64,000 nucleotides of DNA, taken from Thermoplasmatota archaeon. Lineage in GTDB: Archaea > Thermoplasmatota > JAKEGO01. The notes under the pieces are model-generated. The model was given only the letters and a program-made list of their open reading frames with translations. It had not been told where the DNA came from and ran no database searches. The position numbers and the translations under genes were made by a program. Position 1 is the first letter of the stretch. Every line of letters begins with the position of its first letter. The DNA lies in assembly GCA_028279595.1 (NCBI GenBank), contig JANQNK010000001.1, forward strand, positions 1-64,000. Reading direction: 5' to 3'. Shown here piece by piece: positions 22,837 through 63,420 of the stretch.

Positions 22837-22875
22837 GTGCGCTCGTCGCCGTCCCGTAGGGGCGACAAGCGCCTC
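22837..22875 (+). repeat. GCGCTC-hairpin-AACGCG family element (copy H)
   Basis: gtGCG-CTC-GTCGCC-gtcccgtagg-GGCGAC-AA-GCGCCTC, between divergent pyrF and JAMM genes. Confidence 0.7.
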
Positions 22876-22961
22876 GGGACCTCAGATCCAGTATCGCGGG
22901 ACCCTCATCCAGTTACCTGCTGTGGAAATCACTAAATAATCGGACATGGCATGCACACGGG

Positions 22962-23339
22962 ATGGTAGTGCCGACAAAGATCGACAGACCCCTTCTCGAA
23001 ATGATCTTCGAGGCGTCCAAGGACTCCCATCCTTACGAGTTCGGGGCCCTCCTGAGAAAGGATGGCGACACGATAACCGAGCTTCTCCTGCTTCCCGGAA
23101 CGGTCTCGAGCACCCAGAGCGCTCTCTTCAAGCTCTACATGATGCCCATAGACCACGATGTTGCTGGGAGCGTCCACAGCCATCCGTCGCCGAGCCCCTA
23201 CCCGTCCAACGCGGACATCAGTTTCTTTGGCAACCTGGGCGATGTCCATATCATCTGTGCCAGTCCCTACAACGAGAGGTCCTGGCGCGCCTACAACCGG
23301 AAGGGCGAATCGACCCGGCTCGATGTCGTCGAACTCTGA
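22962..23339 (+). CDS. JAMM/MPN+ (Mov34) metalloprotease
   Basis: E...HSHPSPSPYPSNAD JAMM motif. Confidence 0.88.
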   Translation: MVVPTKIDRPLLEMIFEASKDSHPYEFGALLRKDGDTITELLLLPGTVSSTQSALFKLYMMPIDHDVAGSVHSHPSPSPYPSNADISFFGNLGDVHIICASPYNERSWRAYNRKGESTRLDVVEL

Positions 23340-23341
23340 TT

Positions 23342-25009
23342 TCAGGCCTTCCTCAGTTCTCTCCGGAGTATCTTTCCGGAGATCGTCTTCGGAAGCTCAT
23401 CAACGTATTCGACGAGTCTCGGATACTTGTACGGGGCGGTGGTCTCCTTCACGAAGTTCTGCAGCTCCTTCGTCAGCTCGTCCGATGGTTCGAAACCAGC
23501 TGCAAGCACGATGAACGCCTTCACAAGGACTCCCCTGGTGCCCTCCGGGTCATCGGCGCCGACGACGGCGCACTCGGCCACCGCGTCATGTGCGACCAGT
23601 GCCGACTCGACCTCGAACGGGCCGATCCTGTATCCAGAGGACTTGATGACGTCGTCGGACCTGCCGACGAACCAGAAGTATCCGTCCTCGTCGACGTATC
23701 CGCGGTCGCCTGTATAGTAGAAGTCGCCGCGGAAGGCCTTCTCCATCTCCTCGGGGTCCTTCCAGTACTCCATCATGAGTCCTGGCGGTCGGCCGTCACC
23801 CAGATAGATGGCGATGTTGCCCTCCTCGCCGACCGGGACAGGGCCTCCGTCGTCGTCCACGATCCTCATGTCGTGGCCTGGCGTCGGCTTGCCCATGGAC
23901 CCGTACCTGAGCGGGAAGTCGGGCGAGTTCGCGATGATGCAGACCGTCTCGGTCTGTCCGTAGAAGTCGTAGATCTCGACGCCGAAGGCCTCGCGCCATA
24001 CCCGGATGACCTCGGGGTTCAGCGGCTCGCCCGCTGACATGCAGTGCCTGAGGGTCAGTTTGTACTTCTTGAGGTCCTTCTGGATGAGCATCCTGTAGAC
24101 CGTCGGCGGGGCGCAGAACGAGGTCACGCCGTACTGCTCCATCAGCCCGAGGAGCTTGTCAGGGACGAAGCGCCCCGGCGTGTCCCACTGGATGACAGCT
24201 GCTCCGACGATCATCTGGCCGAAGAGCTTTCCCCATGCCGCCTTGGCCCATCCGGTGTCAGAGACGGTCCAGTGAAGATCCGTGCCCCGAAGGTTCTGGG
24301 CGTGCCTTGCCGTGACCTCGTGGGCCTTGGCGTACCTCTGGGCGTGGAGCACCATCTTCGGATGTCCGGTGGTGCCGGACGTGAAGTATATCCACATCGG
24401 GTCGTCGGCGAGGGTCGGCTCGATGGTGTTCCTGTCGACGACGTCGGATGCCTCGGCCATCTCGCTCGAGAAGCAGTGCCACCCCTCCATTTGACAGTCT
24501 ATGGACATGAGGTGCTTGACAGTCGGACACTTCTCGACGACGCGCTCGACCCTGCCGGTGTGTACCATGTCGGTGATGACCATGGTCGCCTCGGACCTGT
24601 TCAACCTATACTCGATGTCCTTCGGTTTCAGCTGGGTGGTCCCCGGCATCGGGATGACCCCCATCTTGATCATGCCGATCATGACGACGTACCACTCGGG
24701 GATGCTGTTCAGGATGACCAGCACGCGGTCGCCCTTCTTGATGCCTATCTTCCTGAGGACGTTGACGAACTTGTCCGATTCCTGGCTCAGCCTGAAGAAG
24801 GTGTGATAGCGGGCGGCGTCCCCGCTCTGGTCTATCGATATCAACGCCAGCTTGGTCCTGTCCTCTGCCCACTTGTCGACGACGTCGAACCCGAAGTTGA
24901 AGTGGTCGGCGCTCAGTTCGACGTGGTCGATCTGAACTGGTTCTTCCACTGCTGGCTCGGGCGTCTCCGGTTCTGGCTTCCTTATCTCCGGCTTAGTGAG
25001 GAGCGGCAT
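23342..25009 (-). CDS. AMP-forming acyl-CoA synthetase (medium-chain/ACSM-like)
   Basis: YFTSGTTGHPK, YGQTET, TGD, GRSDDVIKSSGYRIGPFEVE, LPKTISGKI. Confidence 0.92.
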   Translation of the reverse strand: MPLLTKPEIRKPEPETPEPAVEEPVQIDHVELSADHFNFGFDVVDKWAEDRTKLALISIDQSGDAARYHTFFRLSQESDKFVNVLRKIGIKKGDRVLVILNSIPEWYVVMIGMIKMGVIPMPGTTQLKPKDIEYRLNRSEATMVITDMVHTGRVERVVEKCPTVKHLMSIDCQMEGWHCFSSEMAEASDVVDRNTIEPTLADDPMWIYFTSGTTGHPKMVLHAQRYAKAHEVTARHAQNLRGTDLHWTVSDTGWAKAAWGKLFGQMIVGAAVIQWDTPGRFVPDKLLGLMEQYGVTSFCAPPTVYRMLIQKDLKKYKLTLRHCMSAGEPLNPEVIRVWREAFGVEIYDFYGQTETVCIIANSPDFPLRYGSMGKPTPGHDMRIVDDDGGPVPVGEEGNIAIYLGDGRPPGLMMEYWKDPEEMEKAFRGDFYYTGDRGYVDEDGYFWFVGRSDDVIKSSGYRIGPFEVESALVAHDAVAECAVVGADDPEGTRGVLVKAFIVLAAGFEPSDELTKELQNFVKETTAPYKYPRLVEYVDELPKTISGKILRRELRKA

Positions 25010-25097
25010 TCCTTATCACCGCGCCACCCTAAAATGTCCTCATATTTAAGCGGGACCCTTGGAATCGTCAGAAGACGTTGACCGGGCTGGAATCGTT

Positions 25098-25138
25098 CGG
25101 CGCTCGCCCCCGACGCTGTCGGGGGGCCGACGCGCCTC
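25098..25138 (+). repeat. GCGCTC-hairpin-ACGCG family element (copy E)
   Basis: cgGCG-CTC-GCCCCCGAC-gct-GTCGGGGGGC-CGA-CGCGCCTC; shares 15 bp exactly with 63298-63312. Confidence 0.75.
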
Positions 25139-25218
25139 GCTAGAAGAGCTCAAGATGGCGGACCATGCCACCCTTAGTCTTCATCAATAGTAATATAATG
25201 AGAGACCGTTCACCCAAC

Positions 25219-25878
25219 ATGAACTTCCGTGACCTTCAGATGCTGAAGGAGATCGCGATGCTCGGCGGTGTCGACTCCTACATCACCGTCAAGACTGGCG
25301 ATCTGGCAAGGCGCATCGGATGCGCCCAGCAGACCGCCTCGCGGATGGTCCTGAACCTTCTCAGCCTGAACCTGATCGAACGGAGCCCGAAGACACGGGG
25401 ATACGACCTCCGACTCACCCAGGACGGCGTGGACCTGCTCTTCAAGGAGTACCTCGACTACATCAGGATATTCGAGGTAAGGGAGAAGCTCGTATTCTGG
25501 GGAATGGTCTCCTCCGGCTTCGGCGAGGGCCACATCTTCGTCCAGAGGAAAGGGTATCAGGACCAGATCGACGAGAAGTTCGGCATCACGCCGTTCCCCG
25601 GCACGCTCAACATCCAGGTCGCGCTGAAGGAGCGGCCGAAGCTGAGGCTGCTCGACGTCCTTCCGTGCGAGTACCTCCTCGGTTTCGAGGAGGAGGGCAG
25701 GGCCTACGGTAGGGTGAAGTGCTTCAGGGCCAGTCTGAACAACACCGCGGACGTTATCCTTGTGAGGCCGGAGGTCGGCGGCCACGCTGACGTGGTGGAG
25801 CTGATCGCCCACGAGAGCCTTCGGGAATCATTGGAGCTCGACGACGGCATGTGGGTATCGGTCGAGGTCGAGGCCTAG
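25219..25878 (+). CDS. ribK: CTP-dependent riboflavin kinase with N-terminal winged HTH (RbkR/RibK type)
   Basis: wHTH LARRIGCAQQTASR; GMVSSGFGEG, PFPGTLN, VELIA..LR motifs. Confidence 0.85.
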   Translation: MNFRDLQMLKEIAMLGGVDSYITVKTGDLARRIGCAQQTASRMVLNLLSLNLIERSPKTRGYDLRLTQDGVDLLFKEYLDYIRIFEVREKLVFWGMVSSGFGEGHIFVQRKGYQDQIDEKFGITPFPGTLNIQVALKERPKLRLLDVLPCEYLLGFEEEGRAYGRVKCFRASLNNTADVILVRPEVGGHADVVELIAHESLRESLELDDGMWVSVEVEA

Positions 25879-25977
25879 ACTCGGGATCGGGCACCCGAAC
25901 TCCTCCCACATCACCGCTGTTTCCACTCAACATCGATGGAAGGCCCTCCCAGGCATCGAACTTTCCATGTGTAACTG

Positions 25978-25985
25978 TTATATAA
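25978..25985 (+). promoter_or_regulatory. TATA box of the rps12-rps7-fusA operon
   Basis: TTATATAA about 45 nt upstream of the TTG start; GTGGTGG RBS-like sequence. Confidence 0.6.
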
Positions 25986-26030
25986 TAGAAGGGTTAATGT
26001 GCCGGCACTTCGACAGTAAGTGGTGGTAGA

Positions 26031-26459
26031 TTGGCACGAGGACTCCATGCTGCGAGAAAGCTGAAGGCCGAACGGAAGAAGTACCGCTGGAAGGACTTCT
26101 ACTTCAAGAGGCGGGAGCTGAAGCTCAAGGAGAAGGCGGACCCGCTCGAGGGGTCAGCGCAGGCCAGGGGCATCGTCATAGAGAAGGTCGGCATCGAGGC
26201 GAAGCAGCCCAACTCTGCCATCAGGAAGTGCGTCAAGGTCCAGCTCATCAAGAACGGCCGCCAGATAACGGCCTTCGCGGTGGGGGACGGCGCCATCAAT
26301 TTCATAGACGAGCACGACGAGATCCTCGTTGAGGGCATCGGCGGTCGTCTGGGGCGGTCCTACGGCGACCTGCCCGGGGTCAGATACAAGGTGATCAAGG
26401 TCAACGGCGTGTCCCTGGACGAGATGGTCAGGGGCCGTAAGGAGAAGCCGCAGAGGTGA
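26031..26459 (+). CDS. rps12: 30S ribosomal protein uS12 (S12P)
   Basis: [33 protein letters not shown]. Confidence 0.98.
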
Positions 26460-26464
26460 TGTCA

Positions 26465-27037: not shown

Positions 27038-27049
27038 GGAGGCGATCCC

Positions 27050-29254: not shown

Positions 29255-29304
29255 AACACCGCTACCCACCGGGCATCTGTCCGGTCAATTTCATGATGTT
29301 AGCG

Positions 29305-29347
29305 GACGCGCTCGTTCCCTGACACGGTCAGGGGAACAACGCGTCTC
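29305..29347 (+). repeat. GCGCTC-hairpin-AACGCG family element (copy D)
   Basis: GACGCG-CTC-GTTCCCTGAC-acg-GTCAGGGGAAC-AA-CGCGTCTC; 29337-29350 is identical to 63326-63339. Confidence 0.8.
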
Positions 29348-29423
29348 ACCCCCTATCGGCGATGTCCCTATCTCGACCGACAGATTAAAATTACCCAAGA
29401 CAGCTTTGAATTCGGGGATACAG

Positions 29424-29810: not shown

Positions 29811-30055
29811 GGCATTTCGGCCGAAATTTCCCCTTTGGACGCGGGATGTAGGGGCTCCGGGTACCGCTTATAATATTGTCTTTCACTCTTTTCTGTAATG
29901 GTTCCCTTTATATACTCAAGGTGAAAGGATATAAAGGATGAGTTCTTACGACGTTGCACCGCACTCATTCGTAAGTGGGACGGACGGACAGCCTGTCTGA
30001 AGCACTACGGATCGACGACAGACGCGGACCATCGACACAGGACAAGGGAACAGGG

Positions 30056-33000
30056 ATGAAAATGAAAGCACGAACGTCATCCGGTGGCACTCCCCTGGGT
30101 GCGATCTGGAAGGAGGCGAAGAGGAACTGGAAGACCATCATGATACTGATGGTTCTGTTCCTGATCGGTCTCACCCTAAGATCGTACTACTACTACCAGG
30201 AGAGTGTTGAGAGCGAGGTCGAACTCTCTGGGAACGATCCCTATTATCACAAGAGGGTCATCGACTACGTTCAGGATGAGAAGACACACCTGGTGAGGGA
30301 CCCGCTCCTCGGGTACCCGGCCAAGCCGCACAACCCGCGGCCGCCTCTGTTCGACTGGTCCATCGCGGTCGAGGGACTCGTGTTCGGGACCTTGTTCGGC
30401 AGTCTCGGGGCGACCACACTGTTCATAACCCAGATGACGCCATCGTTCTGGGGGGCGCTCACCATCATCCCGGTATACTTCCTCACGAAGGAGTACTTCG
30501 GAAAGAAGGCCGGCCTGTGGGCGGCACTCTTCCTAACGATAATGCCCTCCCACATCGACCGTTCATCCTTCGGTTTCGCTGACCACGACTCGTTCGTACT
30601 CTTCTTCGTGGTCGTAACCTTCTTCTTCCTCGCGAAGTCGCTGAGGCATCTGAAGGCGAAACGATGGATAGACAACTTCCTCTCCCCGAGGAGCGTGGCC
30701 AAGGGCCTAAGGAGGTTCGGGAACGAGAACTTCCTCTCCCTCGGATACGCCATGATGGCGGCGTTGTCGCTCGCCACCATAGCCCTCGCCTGGAAGGGAT
30801 TCAGCTACGTTGTCGCCATAATCATGGTTTACTACCTCGCGCAGTTGATCATCAACACGTTCAAGCACGAGGACTCCACGGGGGTCGCGGCGGTCATCCT
30901 GATATTGTTGACCGTGCCGCTCCTGCTGGCCCTTCCGGCATACGGCTCGATGAACATGATCTGGTCCCAGTGGGGGCTCAGACCCGTCATCTACATCTAC
31001 GTCGGCGCATGGGCATTGACCCTGGCCTTCGTCCCGACCAGGGACGTTCCGTGGATCATCCTGCTTCCTGCACTGGCCATTGCGGCCGGCATTGTCTACA
31101 CACTGCTGAACATGTTCAATCCGGATCTCGCCGAGACGCTCATCAGCGGCGGCGGATACTTCGTCAAGACGAAGCGGTACTCGACGATCGCAGAGGCTCA
31201 GGCACCCATCCTCAGCCGGCTCATAGTCAGTTACGGACCGGTGACCTTCTTCTTCGCCCTCATCGGGATACTGTTCGCCTTCGTCCGCTTCACGCGGCAC
31301 TGGAGGACCGATGAACTGTTCATCGTGATCTGGGCGTTCGTCTCGATCTTCATGGCCATCTCGGCCGTTCGGTTCATGTTCAACGCCGCACCGGCGTTCG
31401 CCATCCTTCAAGGATGGATCGTCTTCCTGCTGTTGAAGAAGACAGACTTCCGAGCAATCTCGCGGTCACTTCAGGGATTCTCGGGCCAGTTCTGGTACGG
31501 ACTGCGCAAGGGCCTGAGGGTGCGCCACGTGGCCGTGGCGCTGTTCATGGTCTTCATGGTGGTACTGCCGAACTTCTGGCTCGCGTTCGATGCATCCCTC
31601 CCGTACGAGAAGAAACGGGAGATCGACAACCAGATATACGACTCCATGCCCGAGTTCCTCCGGCCGGAGAAGTACAACGAGCAGAACACCCTCTGGTGGA
31701 CCGGCGCCTTCGGACAGGGCTTCCCGTCCGAGTACTGGCACGAGTTCTTCGAGTGGCTCGCCCAGCAGGACAACGAGTACGAAACGGAGGAACGGCCAGC
31801 GTTCATGAGCTGGTGGGACTACGGCATGTGGTGCGTCGAGATCGGCGAACACCCCACCGTTGCCGACAACTTCATGAACGGTCACGAAATGGCCGGGAAC
31901 TTCATCGCCTCGCCCAACGAGACGAACTCGCTGTCTCTCCTCGTCGTCCGGACGCTCGAGTACGAGCTCCGGGACACGAAGGGCGAAAACGAGGCGACCG
32001 CTCTGATCAAGGAGCACCTCGGCGATGAGAACGGCAGCCTGTTCATCGATGCCATCAGGAACCCCAGGAAATACATCGACAGGATCAACGCCCATCCCGA
32101 ACTGTTCGGCAACAAGGACGGCCTCCGGGTCGGTAACGCCCGGTTCGCCATGGCCTCCCACGTCATCGAGAAGAACCTCGAGGACGAGGAGATCATCGAC
32201 TTCCTCGTCGACGCCGAGAGACTGACCGGCAACTGGATACGGTACTTCGCCGTCGATTCGAGGATGTTCCCGTTCAGCTACTACAACACCGGTATCTTCT
32301 ACGCTCCGATCACACTTTCGGACCACGCGGTCTCCGACTACCTCGACACCATGGTGCAGGTGGGCAACCAGCTCTACACACCTGAGGAGTTCGAGAGGCG
32401 CCTCGCGCTGGACCCGGACCTCGAGGCGGACGACCTCGTTCTGACCTACACGCCGGCGTTCTTCGACACCATGTTCTACAAAGCCTACATCGGTTACAGC
32501 GCCCTCGACATCGGGGGCAATCTGTCCATGGGCATCCCGGGGATCTCCGGGGAGCTCGCGGCACAGCCGCCGATGCAGGGCTGGATGATGAAGCACTACA
32601 AGCTCATCTACAAGACGACCTACTACAACCCGTACAACTCGTCCCTCCGGACGAAGCACCAGGACGACTGGGAGATCATCCACTTCGACGAGGCTGTCGA
32701 GAAGCAGGGTGACGAGAACGTGACCGGGACGGTCGATACCCAGACAGGACTGGTCCAGGGCGTCATGGTCCTCAAGTACTACCACGGTGCGAAGATATCC
32801 GGCCGTGTGACGACCGAGGGCGGCGTGGGCATCCCCGGCGCCGTCGTCACGATATACGACGAGTACGGCATCCCGCACGACCTTGCGGAGACCGACGACG
32901 AGGGCAACTACAATGTAATAGCACCCTCCGGGGAGGTCGTCCTCAGGGCGAGCAAGGGCGGCGACTTCAACCCGTTCTTCCAGACCTTCAACGATGTCCT

Positions 33001-36000
33001 CCAGGAGGAGAAGTTCAACATCACCGAGGCCCAGGCAGAGAGGCTGACCGAGGACCTCGACGGAGACGGACGGTACGACTACCTGATCGAGATGGACCTC
33101 ATCGCGAACTCCACCCACATCAACGGGACACTGTTCTGGGACGACGACGGCGACGGAGACCTCGACGACAACGAGGAGGTCATAACGGGCGCCGAGGTCG
33201 AGCTCACCGGCTCGAACATCATCTCGCTCACGACCGACGGGGAGGGCAACTTCAGCACTCCCGACGCCATCGAGACGGACTACGAGTTCGTCTTCATCCA
33301 GGACGGCAACAGGTACGAACTGGACCAGACGATATCATCGGACGGCAATCAGTCCGTCGAGGAGATGGTCCCGATCGAGGGCCTGACCGTCGAGGGGCGC
33401 GTCACGATAAACGACTCCAACGCAAGGGACGTCGAGGTAACGCTCCATGACACCGAGGCCGACATGACATACGTCACGGAAACCAACGGCAAGGGACTCT
33501 TCACGTTCGAGCGCATCCTTCCCGGAACGGACGGGAACGCGGAGTTCGAGATCACATTCGAATACGAGGGCTCCATCCCGGTCACCAGGACGTTCAACGG
33601 CCGGCTCGGCAGGAACGAGGAGGTCAACGTACAGCTGACCGGCGCCTCGGTCCTTGACGGGACGGTGACGGTGGACATGGACGGCGACGGGATATCCGAC
33701 GGCACGGTCCCGAACGCCCTGGTGGTCGCAACGGGAGACGGGACATCCTACGAGGCGATGTCCGATGCCAACGGCGACTATTCGATGGTCGTACCCGAGG
33801 GGAGCTTCATCGTATCTGCCCGCTCGGCGAACGCCGACGGACAGCTCGGCGGCGACGCCAAGGGTGAATCCCCAGGGTCGGCCAACGTCCGTATCGAACC
33901 GCTGTACTGTCTCGGCGGAACCGTCTACATCGACGGCGACGAGGACGACGAGTTCGACCAAGGGATCGATTCGGTCAGCTCGAACGCGCTGGTATCGATC
34001 ACCGGCTCATCCCAGTGGTCCGGCGTGGCCAACCAGGACGGGACCTTCACGGCCCTCCTTCCATACGGCGATTACTATGTGACCGCATCCCACGACCCGA
34101 CCGGCACCAATAGCACATACCTGAACACCAGCTGGGTCTCCCTGGACGCGTCGAGGTCCATCGACCTTCAGCTTACCCAGAGCGAGACCGTCAGCGGTTA
34201 TCTCTACTGGGACAGGAACGACAACGACCTTCCGGACGGTGACGAGTACATCGACGGTGTGCCGTTGACCTTCACTGGCGACCACGAGTTCACGACCATG
34301 ACCGGCGGAGCCCAGTTCCAATCGACCCAGCTCTTCGGGAACGGCTTCTTCTTCAACACGTTCTCGTACTCGACGGGATCCAACGGGTCCTTCGAGGCAC
34401 AGCTGATCCCGGGGAACTACACGGTCTCGATACCGAACTTCGAGGACGTCGAGCTGCCGGAGGGCGACGACATCCTCCTGGATATGACGCCTCTCGAGAC
34501 GACCTTCAGGGGCGACGTCTGGGCCGACGGGAACTTCGACACGGTCGTCGATCCATGGGAGGTCCCCTCGGCGGGCCTCGAGATCACGTTGACGAACACA
34601 CGGGACCAGAACGACGTTATCGTGACGGCCACCGGTGCGAACGGCCGCTTCATCGCATCCCTGATGCCAGGCACCTACGAGGTCAGCATCAACGGGACCG
34701 ACGGCAACGACGTCATGTTCCAGGGCGGAACATTGCTGGACATCCCATACGGCGAGGCCGAGGTCGAGACCGATATCCTGGTCTACCAGCTCTTCCACGT
34801 CATCCCCGAGTACTACATCGACGGGTCCCAGGAGGACCTCGTCTTCGGGCCCGACGACGAGTTCAGGATCGTGGCCTCGGAGGCGAGATGGAACCTGAGC
34901 GTCCCGAACGAGTTCGGCGATCCGGACTGGACCGAGGGCGGGTTCATCTTCCCCGGCGAGTACGACGTCTACATATCCCACGACGGCTACGCCTACATGG
35001 GAGACATCAACGCGACCCAGAGCCAGTCCTACCGATTCGACCTCCGGCCGGGGGTCCAGTACACGGGCGAGGTCAGGACGGTCGATCAGGGACAGACGGT
35101 CAACCGGGACGTCGGAGAACTGGCGATCTCGTTCAGGACCCAGGACGATGTATACCTCACAGAGTTCCTAACCCTGGACCCGATCGGCAACGATTACAAT
35201 TTCAGCGCATTCCTCCCGCCGGGGGACATCGACGTATCGATAGACCATACCCATCTGAACGACGTCTATCTGCTGGATGGACCGCTCACCAACGGTTCCA
35301 TCGAGATGGTCCGTCACTTCAGGATCACCGGGAAGGTCTATTACGATGAGGACCAGGACGGCAACCGCGACTCGAGGGAGGGCCTCGAGGGTGTCGAGCT
35401 GTCGTTCACAGGCGACAACACGTTCAATGTCACCACCGAGGAGAACGGGGATTACACTGTCTATCTGCCCTTCGGCACCCACGGATCGTACAACATCTCC
35501 TTACCCTCTTCCGACTACGTCGAGATCGCTCCTGACCTGGTCGCCGTGCCTGCTGGCACCACGCACATAAGGGTCCAGCCGAGGAACCTCACGGTAACCG
35601 GTACGACCTTCAATGACATCGACATGGACGGCCAGTCCGATGCTGGCGAGGCGGTCGACGCCGACAGGATAGTGTTCATACCCGATTTCGGCACGACGGT
35701 CTCCGTTACACCGTCCGGCGCGAACTACACGGTAGACCTTGCTCCAGGGCCTTACACGGTACACGCCTACTCCGACGACCATGCGGTGATCACCGAGGTG
35801 GACGTTTCCATCGGCAACGATACCGTCATCGACCTGAACATGACCGAGGCCGTCAGCGTAACAGGTACGATCTACTATGTCAACATGACAGGGGATACCA
35901 TCCTCCCGTCCACAGCGGACCTGAAGAAGGAGTTGAGCCTGGCGGGAGATGAGGGAACCATTCTCGTCCCTGTCCATACCGGCCAGTATCAGGTCGTGGT

Positions 36001-37300
36001 GCCCGTCGGCAGGTACAAGGTCAAGGCTACTGCCGAGATGGACGAGTACGGCATCACGAGCGAGTACGCGGTCAACAAGAACTACCAGTTCGAGACCGAG
36101 ATCATGAACTTCGAGCTCCCCAGGGACGACGACTATTCCGTCAGGGTCCGCTGGGACGAGGAGGCCGTAAGGACGCTGCCCGGCACGATGGTGGACTACA
36201 CGATCACCGTGCAGAACACCGGGAACATGCTCATGAACCGCGTCGACGTCACCTCGCAGAACGCACCGGACGGCTGGAACGTCACCTTCGGGAACGAGAC
36301 CTCCACGAGGGTGGACCTCGGACTGAACGAGACCGTCGAGGTCGTCGTGACCATCGCACTGCCATCGGTCACGGAATCCGGTCTCCAGGATGTCAGGATC
36401 AGGGCTGTCCCCCTCGAGGCGGCGTCGGACGACGACTCCGAGACCCTCGAGGTCAACGTGAGCGCGACATACTCGTTCAAGCTTGATGTACTTCGTCCCG
36501 AGAACGGCATTGGCCAGAACATGACCGCCATCATCGATTTCGTCGTCGTGAACCTGGGGAACGCCGAGGACACGTTCATCATCGAACCCCCTGTCGATCC
36601 GGCCGGGTTCACACTCGATATGATGAACGGGACCATGCACCCGATGATCGACACGGACGGTGACGGAGAGCTCGACACCGGCCCGATAAGGGCCTTCGAG
36701 CCCCAGCCGGTGTTCATCAACGTGACCACCGCGGCCGACGCGACCGGCAAGGTAAGCCTGCCCGTGAGGGTAACATCCGTCACATCGGGGATCACGAAGA
36801 CCGCCTATCTGTCGATCCAGGTGATAGACCCCGACATAGGGGTCAACTCGCTGGTGGCCACCGAGACGGCCATCGGCGACGACACGTTCGTCGACCTCTC
36901 CTTCAACGTCTCGAACACGGGGCTCCGCGATGTGGACAACATCGACATCGAGTTCTTCATGGACGGCGATCCGATCGGTTCACGCGACGATGTGATCTAC
37001 AACGGCGCGCCGGTCGGGAACGGGACCATCAACTCGCCGATCGGGCTGAACCTGTCGCTCTCGGTGAGCATCCAGGTGAACTCGACTGGAACGCACACCT
37101 TTGACGTTGTCGTGACACCTGCCGACGATCCCGACGCCCACATGGGCGACAACAGGGCGTCGACGGAGCTGAAGGTTGGGAAGACGGCCTCTGACGACGA
37201 GGGCGCCGACGATTCCATCGTCCAGTTCCTTGCGGTCGCGATAGTCATACTGGTCCTGCTCATCGTGTACGGGGTTTACAGGAGAAAGAGGCGCTGGTAG
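30056..37300 (+). CDS. aglB: Oligosaccharyltransferase AglB/STT3 with giant Ca-binding beta-sandwich extension and C-terminal TM
   Basis: GNDPYYH, ADHD, TIAEAQ, SWWDYG, TVADNF motifs; about 13 TM helices; long DxDxDG-containing repeats; C-terminal TM plus RRKRRW. Confidence 0.93.
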   Translation: MKMKARTSSGGTPLGAIWKEAKRNWKTIMILMVLFLIGLTLRSYYYYQESVESEVELSGNDPYYHKRVIDYVQDEKTHLVRDPLLGYPAKPHNPRPPLFDWSIAVEGLVFGTLFGSLGATTLFITQMTPSFWGALTIIPVYFLTKEYFGKKAGLWAALFLTIMPSHIDRSSFGFADHDSFVLFFVVVTFFFLAKSLRHLKAKRWIDNFLSPRSVAKGLRRFGNENFLSLGYAMMAALSLATIALAWKGFSYVVAIIMVYYLAQLIINTFKHEDSTGVAAVILILLTVPLLLALPAYGSMNMIWSQWGLRPVIYIYVGAWALTLAFVPTRDVPWIILLPALAIAAGIVYTLLNMFNPDLAETLISGGGYFVKTKRYSTIAEAQAPILSRLIVSYGPVTFFFALIGILFAFVRFTRHWRTDELFIVIWAFVSIFMAISAVRFMFNAAPAFAILQGWIVFLLLKKTDFRAISRSLQGFSGQFWYGLRKGLRVRHVAVALFMVFMVVLPNFWLAFDASLPYEKKREIDNQIYDSMPEFLRPEKYNEQNTLWWTGAFGQGFPSEYWHEFFEWLAQQDNEYETEERPAFMSWWDYGMWCVEIGEHPTVADNFMNGHEMAGNFIASPNETNSLSLLVVRTLEYELRDTKGENEATALIKEHLGDENGSLFIDAIRNPRKYIDRINAHPELFGNKDGLRVGNARFAMASHVIEKNLEDEEIIDFLVDAERLTGNWIRYFAVDSRMFPFSYYNTGIFYAPITLSDHAVSDYLDTMVQVGNQLYTPEEFERRLALDPDLEADDLVLTYTPAFFDTMFYKAYIGYSALDIGGNLSMGIPGISGELAAQPPMQGWMMKHYKLIYKTTYYNPYNSSLRTKHQDDWEIIHFDEAVEKQGDENVTGTVDTQTGLVQGVMVLKYYHGAKISGRVTTEGGVGIPGAVVTIYDEYGIPHDLAETDDEGNYNVIAPSGEVVLRASKGGDFNPFFQTFNDVLQEEKFNITEAQAERLTEDLDGDGRYDYLIEMDLIANSTHINGTLFWDDDGDGDLDDNEEVITGAEVELTGSNIISLTTDGEGNFSTPDAIETDYEFVFIQDGNRYELDQTISSDGNQSVEEMVPIEGLTVEGRVTINDSNARDVEVTLHDTEADMTYVTETNGKGLFTFERILPGTDGNAEFEITFEYEGSIPVTRTFNGRLGRNEEVNVQLTGASVLDGTVTVDMDGDGISDGTVPNALVVATGDGTSYEAMSDANGDYSMVVPEGSFIVSARSANADGQLGGDAKGESPGSANVRIEPLYCLGGTVYIDGDEDDEFDQGIDSVSSNALVSITGSSQWSGVANQDGTFTALLPYGDYYVTASHDPTGTNSTYLNTSWVSLDASRSIDLQLTQSETVSGYLYWDRNDNDLPDGDEYIDGVPLTFTGDHEFTTMTGGAQFQSTQLFGNGFFFNTFSYSTGSNGSFEAQLIPGNYTVSIPNFEDVELPEGDDILLDMTPLETTFRGDVWADGNFDTVVDPWEVPSAGLEITLTNTRDQNDVIVTATGANGRFIASLMPGTYEVSINGTDGNDVMFQGGTLLDIPYGEAEVETDILVYQLFHVIPEYYIDGSQEDLVFGPDDEFRIVASEARWNLSVPNEFGDPDWTEGGFIFPGEYDVYISHDGYAYMGDINATQSQSYRFDLRPGVQYTGEVRTVDQGQTVNRDVGELAISFRTQDDVYLTEFLTLDPIGNDYNFSAFLPPGDIDVSIDHTHLNDVYLLDGPLTNGSIEMVRHFRITGKVYYDEDQDGNRDSREGLEGVELSFTGDNTFNVTTEENGDYTVYLPFGTHGSYNISLPSSDYVEIAPDLVAVPAGTTHIRVQPRNLTVTGTTFNDIDMDGQSDAGEAVDADRIVFIPDFGTTVSVTPSGANYTVDLAPGPYTVHAYSDDHAVITEVDVSIGNDTVIDLNMTEAVSVTGTIYYVNMTGDTILPSTADLKKELSLAGDEGTILVPVHTGQYQVVVPVGRYKVKATAEMDEYGITSEYAVNKNYQFETEIMNFELPRDDDYSVRVRWDEEAVRTLPGTMVDYTITVQNTGNMLMNRVDVTSQNAPDGWNVTFGNETSTRVDLGLNETVEVVVTIALPSVTESGLQDVRIRAVPLEAASDDDSETLEVNVSATYSFKLDVLRPENGIGQNMTAIIDFVVVNLGNAEDTFIIEPPVDPAGFTLDMMNGTMHPMIDTDGDGELDTGPIRAFEPQPVFINVTTAADATGKVSLPVRVTSVTSGITKTAYLSIQVIDPDIGVNSLVATETAIGDDTFVDLSFNVSNTGLRDVDNIDIEFFMDGDPIGSRDDVIYNGAPVGNGTINSPIGLNLSLSVSIQVNSTGTHTFDVVVTPADDPDAHMGDNRASTELKVGKTASDDEGADDSIVQFLAVAIVILVLLIVYGVYRRKRRW

Positions 37301-50147: not shown

Positions 50148-50237
50148 AGTATCACCGTTCCTGGGTATGACCATGGGATACATAATCCTTTCACCTGTAG
50201 ATGCCGCACCGTGGTGGGAATCTGACAATGTGGATGA

Positions 50238-50277
50238 TAGCGCTCGATGATGCGCCATGGCATCATCAACGCGCGTC
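50238..50277 (+). repeat. GCGCTC-hairpin-AACGCG family element (copy A)
   Basis: taGCG-CTC-GATGATGC-gccatg-GCATCATC-AA-CGCGCGTC, between pycA and the thiolase. Confidence 0.78.
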
Positions 50278-50304
50278 ACTAGCAACGGATCTGGAGTCGG
50301 GGGA

Positions 50305-56460: not shown

Positions 56461-56547
56461 AGGATATCCCCCGTCCGGTCAACGCTCCATGGCATAATAT
56501 TACTTTTGGTCTCATGGGTGAAAGTGACCATGATGACTCCATCCAAC

Positions 56548-56618
56548 TCGCGTTCTCACAACGTTCCCGTCGCATGACCGACGCGCTCGATGACGACCTC
56601 GCGCCGTCATCAACGCGG
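56548..56618 (+). repeat. Tandem pair of GCGCTC-hairpin-AACGCG elements (degenerate B' plus clear B)
   Basis: B 56580-56618: GACGCG-CTC-GATGAC-N11-GTCATC-AA-CGCGG; 56578-56595 is identical to 63378-63395. B' 56548-56585 shares the ACGCG node. Confidence 0.8.
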
Positions 56619-56687
56619 ATTATTAGTTCTGAGGCACGATATTCGCAATACCTGAACCATTAAATACACCCCGCTCTTTTTCTGGCC

Positions 56688-57581: not shown

Positions 57582-57643
57582 ATGCACAGATCTTCCCTGG
57601 AAGGGTATAAGTAGCATCAGAGGGAATCGATAGTGGGATCAAT

Positions 57644-58993: not shown

Positions 58994-59069
58994 CGGCAAA
59001 GGATATATCACTTATCAGTTACCACGATTTCGGGAAATCTTATCTAAGACCCCTGTCCTACGAAGTTTC

Positions 59070-59831
59070 ATGCGAGCCGTTCCGCTCATCATCGTGACCG
59101 TACTGATACTCACTGCATTCACAGGATGCGTCGAAGAGGGTTCCGACTCGAAGGGCCGTGCTCCCGTCGGTGATTACAACAAGAAACTGCTGAGGGACAG
59201 CCCTTACCCGGACCTCGTCATCGAGATCGATTACGTCGAGGGATTCCAGCCCTCTAACAGCGCCGTACAGCTCCTGAAGCATCGCATCAACGAGAACAGC
59301 GACAAATCGACCGTTTCCGTCAGCCAGAGCGCCTTCGCCTCCGACGACGATGTCTACACACTTAAGGAGATCAAGAACCTCGAGTCCAGGCACAGGACGA
59401 AGAAGACCGGCGGAGATACGATCGTCGTTCACATCCTCTACCTGAACGGACGGTACTCGGAGAGCAACAACGTCCTCGGGATCGCCTATTACGCGGACGC
59501 ATTCTGCCTCTTCAAGGAGCGCATCGAGGACGTGGCCACCACGGGGATAGACAATCCTTTCCTCGTTTCCGACGAGGACATCGAGGAAGCCGTGATCGTC
59601 CACGAGTTCGGCCATCTCCTCGGACTCGTCAACATGAACTACGAGAGCGAACGGGACCACGAGGACCCCGATCACAAGCATCACTGCGTCCACGAGGACT
59701 GCGTCATGAACGCGCAGATCGAGACCAATGCCATCTCGAACCTCATCAATACGGGCGGGACGTCGAACAAACCTCCGACGGACTTCGACCCCGACTGCAA
59801 ATTCGACCTGAACAAACTCAGGAACGGATGA
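59070..59831 (+). CDS. Lipoprotein zinc metalloprotease (metzincin/archaemetzincin-like)
   Basis: Lipobox-like LTAFTGC; HEFGHLLGL; H..HC....CVM Met-turn. Confidence 0.82.
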   Translation: MRAVPLIIVTVLILTAFTGCVEEGSDSKGRAPVGDYNKKLLRDSPYPDLVIEIDYVEGFQPSNSAVQLLKHRINENSDKSTVSVSQSAFASDDDVYTLKEIKNLESRHRTKKTGGDTIVVHILYLNGRYSESNNVLGIAYYADAFCLFKERIEDVATTGIDNPFLVSDEDIEEAVIVHEFGHLLGLVNMNYESERDHEDPDHKHHCVHEDCVMNAQIETNAISNLINTGGTSNKPPTDFDPDCKFDLNKLRNG

Positions 59832-60359
59832 TCAGGCGATCCTCTTGTAATCCTGCGGATACCTTCTCGAGGCCAGGTCGGCGTAGAGTCCCTTGAACTC
59901 CGTCCACTGCTTGATATAACTGTCACTTACGTCGGCGACTATCTTTGCAGGTACACCGGCGACTATCTTCCTCGCGGGGACGACGTCCTTGTTCTTGACG
60001 ACCGCCCCTTCCGCTACAACGGCCCACTCCCCCACCTGGGCGTAGTCGCTGACCACAGCACCCATTCCTACGACGACCCAGTCCTCGAGGGTGGCATTGT
60101 GGATGATGCAGCCGTGGCCGAGTGTGACCTTCTTCCTGATGGTGCACCTCTCGTCCGGCCTGGCATGGATGACGGTATTATCCTCGACGGCGGTCCCGTC
60201 ACCGATGGTAATGGTACCGTAATCCCCGCGTATCCGAGCTCCAGGGGCGATGAAGCAGTCGGCCCCGATGGTCACGTCGCCGATCACGGTGGCGTCCTCG
60301 CAAACGTACGATCCCCTTCCGATGGTCGGCCTCCTGTCACCGAGCTCGTAGACTGCCAT
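59832..60359 (-). CDS. Gamma-carbonic anhydrase family (YrdA/CaiE-like) protein
   Basis: IRGDYG, VEDNTVIH, LGHGCIIH, AGVPAK. Confidence 0.9.
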   Translation of the reverse strand: MAVYELGDRRPTIGRGSYVCEDATVIGDVTIGADCFIAPGARIRGDYGTITIGDGTAVEDNTVIHARPDERCTIRKKVTLGHGCIIHNATLEDWVVVGMGAVVSDYAQVGEWAVVAEGAVVKNKDVVPARKIVAGVPAKIVADVSDSYIKQWTEFKGLYADLASRRYPQDYKRIA

Positions 60360-60472
60360 TGTGTCACCGTCCGTCCAAGGACCGGTTCGGATATAATGTT
60401 TGCTCCGACAGGTGTCGGGGGGAAATGGTTTATGCCCCCGTTCCCCTATCCTTGCAGGACTCGGGTGATAGC

Positions 60473-61261
60473 ATACCGGAAAAGCAATTCGCAGTAGGGA
60501 TCGACCTCCACGGCACGCTTCTCGACGACAGATGGGCGATCAGGTCCGACCTTATGGATCCACTCATCGGAGCCATGGACTCCGTCCTGGACATCTGCAA
60601 CATCTACGTCTGTTCCGGCAACGACCTCACATTCATCGAGAAGTACGTCCCCACCGACGTAAGGAAACGGTTCAAGGGATACATCCTCGAGACCGGATGC
60701 GTCCTCTCCGACGGATTCGAGGAGGCGATCCTCGTCCACGCCGATGACGTCGAGGACATCAAGAAGCTAGAGAAGGCCCTGTGGAGGGAGGGCATCCCGA
60801 ACGTCCGGTACTTCGCCAGACGTCTGGCCACCGTCAGCATGTTCACCCGGGACGAGAAGGAGGGAACCCGTCCCGAGGAGATATTCGAACGCGTGAAGGA
60901 GCTCGTCCGGCACATCGGATATGCCAGGAAGGTCTACGTGACCCATTCCAACGTGGCCGTCGACATAATACCGGTCGGATACGACAAGTTCACCGCCCTT
61001 GACTATGCGGCGAAGGGGCTCGGGACCATCGGGATCGCGGACTCCCTCAACGATTCGCACCTCATTCTCAACGCCACCTACGGCTTCGTACCTAGGAACG
61101 CCTCTCCTGCCCTGCTGCAGCTGATCGGAGGCGAGGGGAGGCAGACCGCTGTCATGAGCTCGTCGGACCCCACCCCGGGCGAGATCAGGATAAGCGACCG
61201 GGAGAGCACCGAATGTGTCATCGAAGTGCTCCGTTATATCGACGAGAACCTGCGTCACTGA
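60473..61261 (+). CDS. HAD-superfamily (Cof/SPP-like) hydrolase, probable ATA start
   Basis: Motif I IDLHGTLL, motif II CSGN, ETG, DK, IADSLND; GGTGA RBS 4 nt before ATA 60473 (alternative ATG 60425). Confidence 0.8.
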   Translation: MPEKQFAVGIDLHGTLLDDRWAIRSDLMDPLIGAMDSVLDICNIYVCSGNDLTFIEKYVPTDVRKRFKGYILETGCVLSDGFEEAILVHADDVEDIKKLEKALWREGIPNVRYFARRLATVSMFTRDEKEGTRPEEIFERVKELVRHIGYARKVYVTHSNVAVDIIPVGYDKFTALDYAAKGLGTIGIADSLNDSHLILNATYGFVPRNASPALLQLIGGEGRQTAVMSSSDPTPGEIRISDRESTECVIEVLRYIDENLRH

Positions 61262-61866
61262 CCCTTCAGGTCGCGCCAGGTCAGGACGCCCCTGTGGATC
61301 GCCGTTACCTGTCCCGCGACCGCGAACAGTATCATGACCATCTCGAAGACCGTGAAATGATAGAGTTCGAAAGAATACTCCAAGGCAGCGTACTGGAAGA
61401 TCGGCGCCAGGATCAGAATGACCATCCTCTCCGCCCTCCCCATGATGCCCGAATAGTTGCGCTTCTTGGTCAGGGCATGCGCCTGGACCCCGAGGTACGA
61501 GACAAGGAGAACGCTCACTATGGCCACGAGTCCGATCTCCGGCCTGCAGTAGGGCCCTATCGCTATCGCACCTATGATGAAGACATCCCCGTAGCGGTCC
61601 AGGACGTGGTCGAGGAAATCACCTCGCTTGGACGCCCGCCCGGTGGCCTTCGCCACCTTGCCGTCCACGGCGTCGAAGCCTGACGACATCAGTATGAAAA
61701 TGCTGGCGAGAAGAAGGTACCACTCGCCCTTGTAGAGGAACAGGCCCGCGACGATCGCCGTCACGAGACCGAGCCACGTCAATGTGTTCGGATTGAATCC
61801 CATGAACGGTTTGGCTATCCCGGACACGACAGGGTCGGCATTCTTCCTGTACTTGTCCAGGGCCAA
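61255..61866 (-). CDS. CDP-alcohol phosphatidyltransferase (archaeal phospholipid synthase, AIP synthase/PgsA-like)
   Basis: PNTLT, DAVDGKVAK...GDFLDHVLDRYGD signature; TTG start after GGTGA. Confidence 0.92.
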   Translation of the reverse strand: MALDKYRKNADPVVSGIAKPFMGFNPNTLTWLGLVTAIVAGLFLYKGEWYLLLASIFILMSSGFDAVDGKVAKATGRASKRGDFLDHVLDRYGDVFIIGAIAIGPYCRPEIGLVAIVSVLLVSYLGVQAHALTKKRNYSGIMGRAERMVILILAPIFQYAALEYSFELYHFTVFEMVMILFAVAGQVTAIHRGVLTWRDLKGQ

Positions 61867-61870
61867 TGGA

Positions 61871-63202
61871 TCACCCTTTTCTGACCGCAGCCACAACGCG
61901 GTCCACTATCGCGCCCGAGTTACCGACGTAGGTCGCCGGATCGAGGAGCTCCTCGAGGTCCTCCGCCGTCATAAGTGTGCCGATGGTCTCCTCGGCAAGG
62001 AGGTCCTTGGCGAAGTCGCCACCGACGAGCGCTGCCTTCCTTACGAGTTCGTGCGCGTCCTGACGGCCTATCCCACGCTCGACGAGGGCCATGATGACCC
62101 TCTCGGCCATGACCCGTCCGCCGGACATGGAGACGTTCTCGGCCATCCGGTCCGAGTCGACGATGAGGTTCCTGAACAGGTTGGTCGTCTTGTGGACGAC
62201 GTCGTCCGTCAGTATCGCTACATGCGGTATCACGAACCTCTCGGCCGAGCTGTTCGAAAGGTCCCTCTCGTGCCACTGGACCGCGCCCTCCCAGGCGGGT
62301 GTGAGGAATCCCCTGATGACCCGTGCCAGGCCGGTGATGTTCTCGCAGACGATCGGGTTGCGCTTCTGGGCCATAGTGGAGCTCCCGACCTGCTTCTCCG
62401 CGTGGAAGTACTCCATAACCTCGCCGATCTCTGTCCTCTGGAGGTTCCTGATCTCTGTGGAGAACTTCTCTATCGTCGCGGAGATGTTCGCACAGAGTGA
62501 TACGAACTCGATCATCCGATCCCGCTGGACGATCTGCGTAGACGCCCGCTCGGCTGTAAGTCCGAGGAGCTTCATGACGTGCTTCTCGACGGCGAGCCCG
62601 TTCGGCCCCATGGCGGCCATGGACCCGACCGCACCGGACATCTTGCCCACACAGAGGCGGGGAGTCAGCTCATCCAGCCTCTGAATGTGCCTGTGTACCT
62701 CGTCGGCGTAGACGGCCATCTTCAGGCCGAACGTGATCGGTACAGCATGCTGTCCGTGTGTCCGTCCTATCATCAGCGTGTCCCTGTGCTCGACGGCCAG
62801 GTCAACGAGGGCTCCCCTCAGCTCCTCCAGCTCGATCCTGAGGATCTCCAGGTAGGACTTGAACTGAAGCCCCGAGGCAGTGTCCACTATGTCGTATGAC
62901 GTGGCTCCAAGGTGGATGTAATGCCCGGCGTCCCCGCACTGCTCGGAAAGGGCCTTCACTATGGCCATGACGTCGTGCTTGATCTCGGCCTCGATCTCGT
63001 CGACGCGCTCTATCTTGACCTTACCCTCGGCGACGGCCTTCTCGATGTCGTCAGCTGCCTTCACCGGGACCATCTCGAGCTCGGACTGCGCCCTCGCGAG
63101 GGCCGCCTCGACCTCGAGGTAGTAACGAACACGTCTCTCGTGAGAGAAGATATCCTTGACGACGTCCCTTCCATACCTGAAATCCAGCGGGCAGACGGGC
63201 AT
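61871..63202 (-). CDS. purB: Adenylosuccinate lyase
   Basis: CPLDFRYG, KHDVMA, HLGATSYD, GRTHGQHA, GSSTMAQKRNP, HERDLSNS. Confidence 0.95.
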   Translation of the reverse strand: MPVCPLDFRYGRDVVKDIFSHERRVRYYLEVEAALARAQSELEMVPVKAADDIEKAVAEGKVKIERVDEIEAEIKHDVMAIVKALSEQCGDAGHYIHLGATSYDIVDTASGLQFKSYLEILRIELEELRGALVDLAVEHRDTLMIGRTHGQHAVPITFGLKMAVYADEVHRHIQRLDELTPRLCVGKMSGAVGSMAAMGPNGLAVEKHVMKLLGLTAERASTQIVQRDRMIEFVSLCANISATIEKFSTEIRNLQRTEIGEVMEYFHAEKQVGSSTMAQKRNPIVCENITGLARVIRGFLTPAWEGAVQWHERDLSNSSAERFVIPHVAILTDDVVHKTTNLFRNLIVDSDRMAENVSMSGGRVMAERVIMALVERGIGRQDAHELVRKAALVGGDFAKDLLAEETIGTLMTAEDLEELLDPATYVGNSGAIVDRVVAAVRKG

Positions 63203-63295
63203 GCTATCGGCCCCGGATTGCGGTGTGTCTGTAAAAAGGTTGTTCCCGGCAATTCGCCGTCCGGTCGGATGGGATGACGCGGTGACGGGGGATAT

Positions 63296-63420
63296 CCGCG
63301 CTCGCCCCCGACCCCGTCGTGGGACCAACGCGTCTCACCAACACTGTCGATGGAGCGCGTCCCACCAAATTGCAGTGCCGACGCGCTCGATGACGCCTCT
63401 CTTGGTCATCCACGCGTCTC
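63296..63420. repeat. Chained array of GCGCTC-hairpin-ACGCG elements (F +, G -, C +)
   Basis: F 63296-63336; inverted G 63328-63361 (ACGCG-CTC-CATCGAC-agt-GTTGGTG-AGA-CGCGT on the minus strand); C 63380-63420. Confidence 0.8.

Follow-up and report, generated by a model that had tools for sequence, protein, structure and literature searches.

A polar family of intergenic hairpin elements in a Thermoplasmata archaeon

Known hairpin repeats and the archaeal element

To our knowledge, repeats that function as hairpins of single-stranded DNA (ssDNA) are known almost only from bacteria, namely the REP/RAYT, attC and IS200/IS605 systems. Each of these has a known partner enzyme and a polarity that is partial or local. 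attC sites are read as a folded single (bottom) strand, in a strand-dependent and replication-linked manner. REP elements, whose partner RAYT, or TnpA-REP, is a Y1 HUH enzyme, include GTAG- and CGTC-tagged superfamilies (PMC3733652; PMC2817692). The excision and insertion of IS200/IS605 elements use the lagging-strand template, so that their orientation in the genome recapitulates the direction of replication (PMC5371812). PATEs, which are gene-less derivatives of IS200/IS605, have been described in haloarchaea (PMC3119063).

The hairpin elements described here form a lineage-specific family of about 90 intergenic DNA elements in the genome of an uncultured Thermoplasmata archaeon (G000; 2.29 Mb in 21 contigs, 86% complete, 88.5% coding). 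They resemble the REP, BIME and REPIN sequences associated with RAYT in being short, imperfect, intergenic palindromes present in tens to hundreds of copies, and the REP superfamily tagged with CGTC likewise lacks an associated transposase (PMC3733652; PMC2817692). Conserved ends, more variable stems and loops, and a lineage-specific copy number are also common to both. However, REPs have an unpaired GTAG or CGTC tag, whereas the archaeal element has no GTAG and contains CGTC only within its paired GACGCG/CGCGTC foot. In REPs, dimers are head-to-head or tail-to-tail and rarely head-to-tail, whereas the archaeal element is found only head-to-tail. Further differences are the archaeal host, the absolute replication polarity, and the lack of both clusters of identical copies and a detectable RAYT gene. 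Because the features that define REP/RAYT were looked for and not found, the term REP-like, which an earlier note on this DNA had applied to the family, holds as an analogy only.

Other systems share different subsets of features. Recognition of a hairpin on one DNA strand, which would apply to the archaeal element as well, and an orientation that follows replication are common to the element and IS200/IS605. The element, however, is a single hairpin of ~50 nt and not a body flanked by separate left and right ends, its copies are old and diverse instead of near-identical, and no TnpA or TnpB was found in the assembly. The likeness to attC is one of form only (a foot with conserved boxes, extrahelical bases, and a stem of variable sequence that remains paired): attC sites occur in cassette arrays next to an intI gene, whereas the archaeal copies are dispersed single sites between housekeeping genes, and the RYYYAAC/GTTRRRY core sequences are not evident in them. 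An orientation locked to replication along whole replichores is likewise a property of KOPS, Chi and the archaeal ASPS (PMC2958812). These, however, are dense words of 4–8 nt that lie mostly within genes, whereas the element is ~50 nt long, defined by structure, and only intergenic.

Copies, structure and folding strand

The window, that is, the whole 64-kb stretch of DNA that was analysed, was scored with a covariance model with filters off. Exactly the seven strong + strand copies that the earlier note had listed were recovered (40–52 bits, E values from 1e-7 to 2e-10; Table 1), and the exact blocks that it had seen in distant copies were visible as shared stretches of 15–17 nt. A search for the arm pattern gave 6 occurrences in the window, compared to 0.00 expected from 100 shuffles. 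On the − strand, the model picked up nothing but weak reflections of these quasi-palindromic loci at E values up to 5. The supposed inverted copy at 63328–63361 shrank to a solo left-arm-like decamer, and what had been taken for degenerate copies at 56548 and ~63248 amounts to arm fragments at best; the model matched none of the three at E values up to 5. One of the fragments, resembling a right arm, is possibly the relic of a copy. Thus, the earlier observation stood with respect to the seven copies, their covariation and their size, but not with respect to the inverted and degenerate copies.

Table 1. Hairpin copies and arm fragments in the 64-kb window
Feature	Position	Strand	Score (bits)	Context
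Copy 1	22835..22879	+ (model); better-folding strand −	40.0	Between divergent OMP decarboxylase (−) and JAB-domain (+) genes
Copy 2	25096..25142	+	43.4	Between divergent acyl-CoA synthetase (−) and riboflavin kinase-like (+) genes
Copy 3	29304..29351	+	47.0	50 nt past the EF-2 (+) stop, 73 nt ahead of thioredoxin gene (+); extended stem
Copy 4	50236..50281	+	49.3	Two − strand neighbours (thiolase start, biotin carboxylase stop); antisense to both
Copy 5	56579..56625	+	43.9	Between divergent RFC small subunit (−) and hexapeptide transferase (+) genes
Copy 6	63294..63340	+	49.7	First member of head-to-tail pair; 44/47 conserved in orthologous L231 spacer
Copy 7	63379..63424	+	51.6	Second of head-to-tail pair, 85 nt start-to-start; not conserved in L231
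Solo right-arm-like fragment, not a copy	56544..56559	+		From sequence; no model match
Solo left-arm-like decamer, not a copy	63352..63361	−		From sequence; no model match; adjoins right arm of copy 6

In the whole genome, the covariance model gave 86 matches. An independent scan with a PWM plus stem, in which the minor strand served as a control, yielded 92 matches on the major strand versus 1 on the minor strand at a score of at least 17, and 77 versus 0 at a score of at least 25. Altogether, there are ~88–92 copies. As the earlier note had proposed for the window, the family is intergenic: 83 of 85 model matches lie outside predicted ORFs in this densely coding genome. The scores in the PWM-plus-stem scan are bimodal, and decayed relics are few. 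Copies occur on average about once per 25 kb and are clustered, and their density is very uneven, with none between 53 and 202 kb of contig C11, none between 137 and 302 kb of contig C19, and none in the low-GC islands. Neighbouring copies are all arranged head-to-tail, 64–95 nt apart; no head-to-head or tail-to-tail doublets and no opposite-strand copy at a score of at least 25 were found in the genome. Near-identical dispersed copies are absent (the best pairs of inner regions score ~0.7), and self-BLAST of the genome revealed no IS-like repeats.

The element has a 46-nt core, or ~57 nt with a weakly conserved, TCTCACC-like tail without a T-run. Outside the core there is only weak conservation (G at −2, and A/T/G at +0/+1/+5), and the arms are nearly invariant across copies. 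The covariation of the inner stem, claimed earlier from a handful of copies, was borne out: compensatory changes affect 5 of the 6 inner pairs, 98% of the cells are paired, and the observed score was reached in 0 of 500 shuffles. The constrained arm-to-arm length also recurs genome-wide, with a loop of exactly 10 nt in 56 of 88 copies. Within this loop G1, C5 and T8 are preferred, and no register of pairing covaries above shuffles. Loops resemble each other no more among copies with a common stem than among copies whose stems differ.

Mismatches of the G·T type are strongly biased toward the bottom strand, defined as the complement of the strand written in the earlier note (118 versus 31 on the top strand, p = 4e-13; 65 versus 31 when the fixed internal-loop site is left out), whereas base composition predicts a ratio of 1.0. 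DNA folding was better for the bottom strand in all seven window copies, giving a continuous helix with one bulged G, the TT/GAG form that had been suggested for the other strand. Hence, the folding strand is complementary to the strand listed earlier, and it is always on the G-rich strand of the chromosome. From base to apex, the folded strand would comprise a CGCG foot of 4–6 bp, one bulged G, a T-A pair followed by a pair that is either T·G or C-G, a G...C stem of 6 bp in which the four inner pairs are free in sequence yet kept paired by compensatory change, and a 10-nt loop with three preferred bases. A bias of wobble (G·T) pairs to one strand is also a classic mark of RNA structure. A K-turn or another RNA motif was rejected, since G11-C35 and N12-N34 behave as Watson-Crick pairs and Rfam gave no match for the window or for two element regions.

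Polarity, neighbours and relatives

Within each of 15 contigs all copies point the same way, and in 15 of 15 cases this direction agrees with the sign of the strand-corrected GC skew (p = 6e-5); 92% of the 30-kb neighbourhoods agree with the skew. The + strand bias noticed in the window is thus part of an absolute polarity that follows a replication-type GC skew. By the usual rule, the G-rich strand of the chromosome is the lagging-strand template, which is single-stranded behind the fork. The rule is supported here because an origin-type skew switch falls on the contig that bears orc1 (C11), where orc1 is accompanied by an ORB-like box and an AT-rich stretch. Against it stands the skew minimum of C11 at ~121 kb, which is 40 kb away from orc1. 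On the basis of this general rule, the G-rich strand is presumably the lagging-strand template in this genome. The orientation of genes was uninformative as an independent proxy for fork direction: relative to element polarity the tRNA genes are split 19 to 22, and the rRNA, RNA polymerase and EF-2 genes disagree among themselves. The tetramer GTTG, an ASPS word of Thermococcales (PMC2958812), is among the most skewed tetramers of the genome and is also present in the folding strand of the element.

The orientation of the copies is independent of transcription, as claimed earlier for the window, where three copies lie between divergent genes. Relative to the element, the neighbouring genes are divergent in 28 cases, tandem in the same direction in 27, tandem in the opposite direction in 16, and convergent in 12. 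Of 83 copies, 27 are antisense to both flanking genes when taken on the strand that tolerates wobble pairs, and 16 when taken on the other. Copies abut gene ends, yet keep ~60 nt or more from gene starts. No fixed A+T-rich or promoter-like signal was found within 120 nt on either side, and no functional theme unites the neighbouring genes. An orientation that is constant relative to strand asymmetry, whatever the neighbouring genes do, looks like that of a single-stranded signal read during replication. Several other candidates were rejected. An intrinsic terminator-like hairpin does not fit the 16–27 copies that are antisense to both neighbours, nor a tail without a T-run; avoidance of restriction sites does not fit CGCG and GCGC, which are both near their expected frequencies; and genes flanked by two copies are not autonomous elements, as they encode Nop5, Memo and small proteins without a Pfam match.

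Three genomes of the class contain ~90, 6 and 0 copies. Positions differ between genera: in G001, two syntenic contigs keep the orientation of the elements, but not their positions. A scan of 185,579 species genomes with the exact-arm pattern gave only single chance matches without stems, and the matches listed for the JGI metagenomes and IMG/VR were likewise stemless chance singles. The exception in these pattern scans was one true orthologous contig, L231, from a related species at 81% identity. In L231 the orthologue of copy 6 is identical at 44 of 47 positions and conserved together with promoter-like blocks, whereas the surrounding spacer is diverged and contains indels; near the site of copy 7 there is, instead, a decayed, different copy. 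Judging from this single orthologous pair, the copies appear to be under purifying selection. Homologues of EF-2, the neighbour of copy 3, were found at 93% and 83% protein identity.

No cognate protein, which the earlier note had left unnamed, was found. Profile searches covered Y1 and Y2 HUH transposases, two Rep families and TnpB: in the 86% complete assembly, PF01797 (Y1 HUH, RAYT) had no match at E ≤ 1, and PF07282, PF04986, PF02407 and PF01719 had no significant match, the result for PF02407 being a weak negative because the control genomes gave no match either. That these searches found no reader counts against a hairpin recognised by a protein. Seven tyrosine recombinase genes are present, none of them within an array of copies. 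One, on contig C14, is beside a copy, a coincidence since the gene is part of a low-GC island inserted at tRNA-Arg; another, on C7, is near tRNA-Pro. The tyrosine recombinases examined are located in islands linked to tRNA genes, and these enzymes were rejected as partners. Rfam gave no match at the gathering score in the window, and none even at E ≤ 1 on two element regions. On the whole, the analysis supports the earlier picture of an intergenic, structure-constrained, polar element that is independent of transcription.

Possible roles of the hairpins

The elements are probably replication-linked ssDNA hairpins of a REP/attC/IS200-like kind that are selectively kept and read by a putative protein. 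Each would act as DNA, in the form of a single-stranded hairpin; with the folding strand on the lagging-strand template, the hairpin would form in every round of replication, and its putative reader would be specific for both structure and sequence. Over longer times, copies would be gained, lost and tandemly duplicated. It is conceivable, although doubtful, that the hairpins are a host mark of the replication strand that is defined by structure. A lineage-specific protein would then recognise them on the lagging-strand template in order to handle forks, control recombination or organise the chromosome. The long copy-free stretches of C11 and C19 would be odd for a general chromosomal function.

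Much of this pattern could also be produced by a selfish, non-autonomous ssDNA transposon of the REP/REPIN or IS200/IS605 PATE type, active or recently so. The gene for its Y1 HUH enzyme would then be in the 14% of the genome that is not assembled, or have been lost since, and the polarity would be only a side effect of inserting into the lagging-strand template. We consider this unlikely. Orientation along with replication is indeed a hallmark of IS200/IS605 (PMC5371812), and the copy numbers of ~90, 6 and 0 in the class, the different positions between genera, the gain or loss of copies between species that are 81% identical, the head-to-tail arrays, and the placement of copies at gene ends but ~60 nt or more from starts all suit a mobile element. 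However, Y1, Y2, Rep and TnpB genes were not found in G000, the best dispersed copies match at only ~0.7 in their inner regions, low-GC islands are free of copies, relics are few and scores bimodal, and the orthologous copy in L231 is more conserved than its spacer. Copies with the same stem do not have loops in common either, which fits an old, saturated family.

Two readings that dispense with ssDNA are less probable still. A structured RNA, in the form of a small RNA gene or of a UTR motif and likeliest from the G·U-tolerant strand, would account for covarying stems, wobble pairs confined to one strand, and a loop conserved in length and in some bases. We regard it as very unlikely, because 27 of 83 copies on that strand and 16 on the other are antisense to both neighbours, no promoter-like signal is found at a fixed distance within 120 nt on either side, Rfam is silent even at E ≤ 1, and the 100% agreement of the element with skew has no parallel in tRNA (19 to 22), rRNA or RNA polymerase genes. 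The least probable reading is a duplex-DNA site of a global regulator or nucleoid protein, with arms about two helical turns apart and an incidental potential to form hairpins. Conserved arms at fixed spacing, the frequency of copies in promoter-containing spacers (28 divergent), and the conservation of copy 6 with promoter-like blocks in L231 point in this direction. However, a duplex reader does not need inner sequences that are free yet self-complementary, strand-specific G·T tolerance and absolute replication polarity would be unexpected, 12 copies are in spacers of convergent genes, which have no promoter, and the neighbouring genes have no common functional theme.

The archaeal family is set apart by its absolute replication polarity, by selection on one identifiable strand, by covarying stems with conserved feet, and by the lack of a recognisable HUH partner. 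If a protein reader exists, it is probably of a new kind that recognises DNA structure plus sequence, and if the hairpins are a host mark, they would be an archaeal hairpin counterpart of polar sites of the KOPS, Chi or Ter type and not mobile DNA. In a class known from three draft genomes only, the elements can help to order contigs, as they mark the direction of replication at no extra cost, and such a marker would allow tests of how archaeal replication forks expose and use ssDNA.

Copies in the window and in the genome

A covariance model of the element, built from 33 copies (alignment A2) and run over the entire window with filters off, recovered exactly the seven plus-strand loci claimed in the earlier note, at 40–52 bits, and all its minus-strand matches were weak shadows cast by these quasi-palindromic sites. 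Searched for alone, the arm pattern is present in six places in the window, versus 0.00 expected from 100 dinucleotide-preserving shuffles. Three further calls, an 'inverted copy' and two 'degenerate copies', had no match to the model in the window at E up to 5: the former is made up of copy 6's right arm and, after it, a solitary left-arm-like decamer on the opposite strand, and the latter are arm fragments at most. These over-called fragments excepted, the observation is real. All seven sites are laid out as (GA)CGCG, CTC, a G-N4-C stem, a loop, the complementary G-N4-C, AA or GA, and CGCG, followed by a (T/C)NTC(A/G) tail.

In the whole assembly (2.29 Mb, 21 contigs, 86% complete), in which the window forms the initial 64 kb of contig C4, the model gave 86 matches at E ≤ 1. 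An independent scan, combining position weight matrices for the two arms with a stem-pair count, found 92 sites on the contigs' major strand versus one on the minor strand at scores ≥17, and 77 versus none at ≥25. With the minor strand as the measure of noise, the genome therefore contains about 90 real copies, on average one per ~25 kb. By our own gene calls, which make 88.5% of the genome coding, 83 of 85 matches fall outside predicted ORFs, and the other two overlap weak ORF calls.

The stems were said to differ and yet stay paired, and covariation bears this out. Across A2, 98% of the inner helix is paired; five of the six pairs vary at both of their positions, and neither shuffles nor slid registers approach the observed value. 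Among 88 copies, Watson-Crick pairs fill 481 of the 528 inner-stem cells; at the two ends of the stem, the pairs (G-C first, C-G last) are nearly fixed, and the four between them are variable. The loop is exactly 10 nt long in 56 of these copies and 11–12 nt in another 25, favours particular bases at positions 1 (G, 75%), 5 (C, 86%) and 8 (T, 68%), and displays no internal covariation in this set. Outside the 46-nt core, conservation is limited to the weak tail. Neither flank has an A+T-rich signal at a constant distance, and thus the element has no dedicated promoter.

Coordinates of the features considered, in the window, in the genome under study (G000) and in its relative G001
Sequence	Position	Feature	Remarks
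Window	1–268	Start of the window	resembles the start of contig C5 (82% identity)
Window	1–20000	May be an island	reduced GC (about 51%), confident gene calls with many gaps between them, no hairpin copy
Window	30056–37300 (+)	One very long ORF	~2,414 aa, after a thioredoxin gene
Window	near 56548	Claimed degenerate copy	
Window	62.3–63.9 kb	Segment orthologous to L231	
Window	near 63248	Claimed degenerate copy	
Window	63294–63340 (+)	Copy 6	
Window	63328–63361	Claimed inverted copy	
Window	63379–63424 (+)	Copy 7	
G000 C11	53–202 kb	Copy-free stretch	normal GC content; encloses the putative origin
G000 C11	near 121 kb	Minimum of corrected cumulative skew	origin-type
G000 C11	162–164 kb	orc1/cdc6 gene	
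G000 C11	163571–163888	Spacer 5' of orc1/cdc6 (outside the window)	41% GC, very AT-rich core; ORB-like box TCCACGAGAAAC, then a C-run
G000 C14	112.3–117.3 kb (L360:1800–6800)	Low-GC island beside tRNA-Arg	29–43% GC; tyrosine integrase and tRNA-Ala(CGC)-like gene; hairpin copy 42 nt upstream of the tRNA-Arg gene
G000 C19	137–302 kb	Copy-free stretch	normal GC content
G001 C19	8231–8454 (L028)	Head-to-tail array	period 88–95 nt
G001 C25	3400–3541 (L029)	Head-to-tail array	period 88–95 nt

Orientation and strand polarity

Copies occur on 15 contigs and have a single orientation within each; gene strands on these contigs are mixed. Relative to the element, the gene contexts are 28 divergent, 27 tandem same-sense, 16 tandem opposite-sense and 12 convergent; the 27:16 ratio is not significant, in agreement with the proposed independence from transcription. 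The plus-strand bias seen in the window is part of a genome-wide polarity. When GC skew was split into transcription-linked and strand-independent parts, the latter had the same sign relation to element orientation on 15 of 15 contigs (p = 6e-5), and 92% of the 30-kb neighbourhoods agreed. In every case, the C-rich chromosome strand is the one that carries the element as originally listed (the written strand). No other feature with this polarity was found among the genes of G000: tRNA genes are divided 19 to 22; RNA polymerase B, EF-2 and the L3 cluster run in the same direction as the written strand, and the 16S gene runs against it. Gene orientation is not biased relative to GC skew either (about 52%; tRNA genes 19:22, likewise), and the skew is nearly nil in intergenic DNA and present in coding DNA of both orientations.

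Contig C11 combines an origin-type skew minimum with an orc1/cdc6 gene that is preceded by an ORB-like box and an AT-rich stretch. Given this box, the AT-rich core and the position upstream of orc1/cdc6, the spacer is likely to be a replication origin. As a rule, the leading strand is G-rich; the skew minimum and orc1/cdc6 fit this rule, though the two markers are 40 kb apart. Because the skew switch falls within the copy-free zone, no contig shows an orientation flip. Even with elements masked, GTTG ranks in the top five tetramers of G000 for skew to the G-rich strand (8132 versus 6841); it has been described in Thermococcales as an archaeal short polarized sequence (ASPS; PMC2958812). Polarity is the sole feature that the element has in common with such words.

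Relatives, age and partner genes

The class comprises three genomes in our collection: G000 with about 90 copies, G001 (same family, other genus) with six, and G002 with none; no copy was found in 38 other genomes of the phylum. The G001 copies form two head-to-tail arrays on contigs syntenic with C14 and C18 of G000, with the same chromosomal orientation and different spacers. In the array on C19 of G001 the linkers are similar to each other, a sign that element and linker were duplicated together in tandem. A 1.6-kb metagenome contig, L231, is orthologous (81% identity) to the part of the window that includes the head-to-tail pair of copies 6 and 7. Copy 6 is identical there at 44 of 47 positions, and the spacer around it contains a 32-nt indel and otherwise aligns poorly; in the position of copy 7 there is a decayed copy with a different stem. 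Within G000, no near-identical dispersed copies were found, same-stem copies show no excess of loop similarity (3.8 versus 4.1 of 10 positions for others), low-GC islands contain no copies, and decayed relics are few. Taken together, these sequence comparisons describe an old family, with arms and pairing under selection and slow turnover of sites; a recent burst seems unlikely.

The search for a Y1/RAYT transposase gene flanked by dense copies yielded nothing: searches of the 86% complete G000 turned up no gene for an HUH transposase (Y1 or Y2), a Rep protein or TnpB, and no IS-like repeats. The genome encodes seven tyrosine recombinases; the one adjoining an element copy was rejected as a partner, being part of a low-GC island integrated at tRNA-Arg. 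The genes adjoining copies, whether in the window or in G001, are housekeeping or metabolic ones with no relation to each other. In their source records, the EF-2 homologues carry the name 'Thermoplasmata archaeon'.

The strand that folds

The main addition of this analysis is the evidence on the strand of folding. Among non-Watson-Crick pairs, the written strand has A·C (read on the complement as G·T) 118 times and G·T 31 times (p = 4e-13), a bias that persists at 65 to 31 (p = 7e-4) when the fixed internal-loop site is left out; base composition predicts a ratio of 1.0. The bases preceding the 3' CGCG are AA in 51 copies and GA in 25. This alternation corresponds to T·G or C-G on the complement, so that the 'CTC/AA internal loop' closes there: a T-A pair and a T·G or C-G pair form, and one G is left bulged, a bulge that the earlier note had mentioned. 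In DNA folding, the complement was more stable than the written strand for all seven window copies. Mismatch asymmetry and folding stability thus identify the strand selected for folding as the one that lies on the chromosome's G-rich strand, which is presumably the template of the lagging strand.

Bacterial REPs are marked by an unpaired tag, GTAG or CGTC, and occur mostly as head-to-head dimers, with a RAYT gene in addition in the GTAG type (PMC3733652); in G000, the element has no such tag, no head-to-head dimers and no detected RAYT. Like IS200/IS605, whose orientation is locked to replication (PMC5371812), it is replication-locked, but the IS200/IS605 enzymes were not found in G000 and the element copies are not alike. 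No description of such an element in archaea was found in the literature searched. Integron attC sites combine a conserved foot, an extrahelical base, a free but paired stem and bottom-strand reading. The element resembles them in its foot, its extrahelical base, its free yet paired stem and its bottom-strand folding, but lacks the context of an array plus integrase. The proposed system, REP-like by analogy and recognized as a DNA structure by a putative reader protein, holds as a working model.
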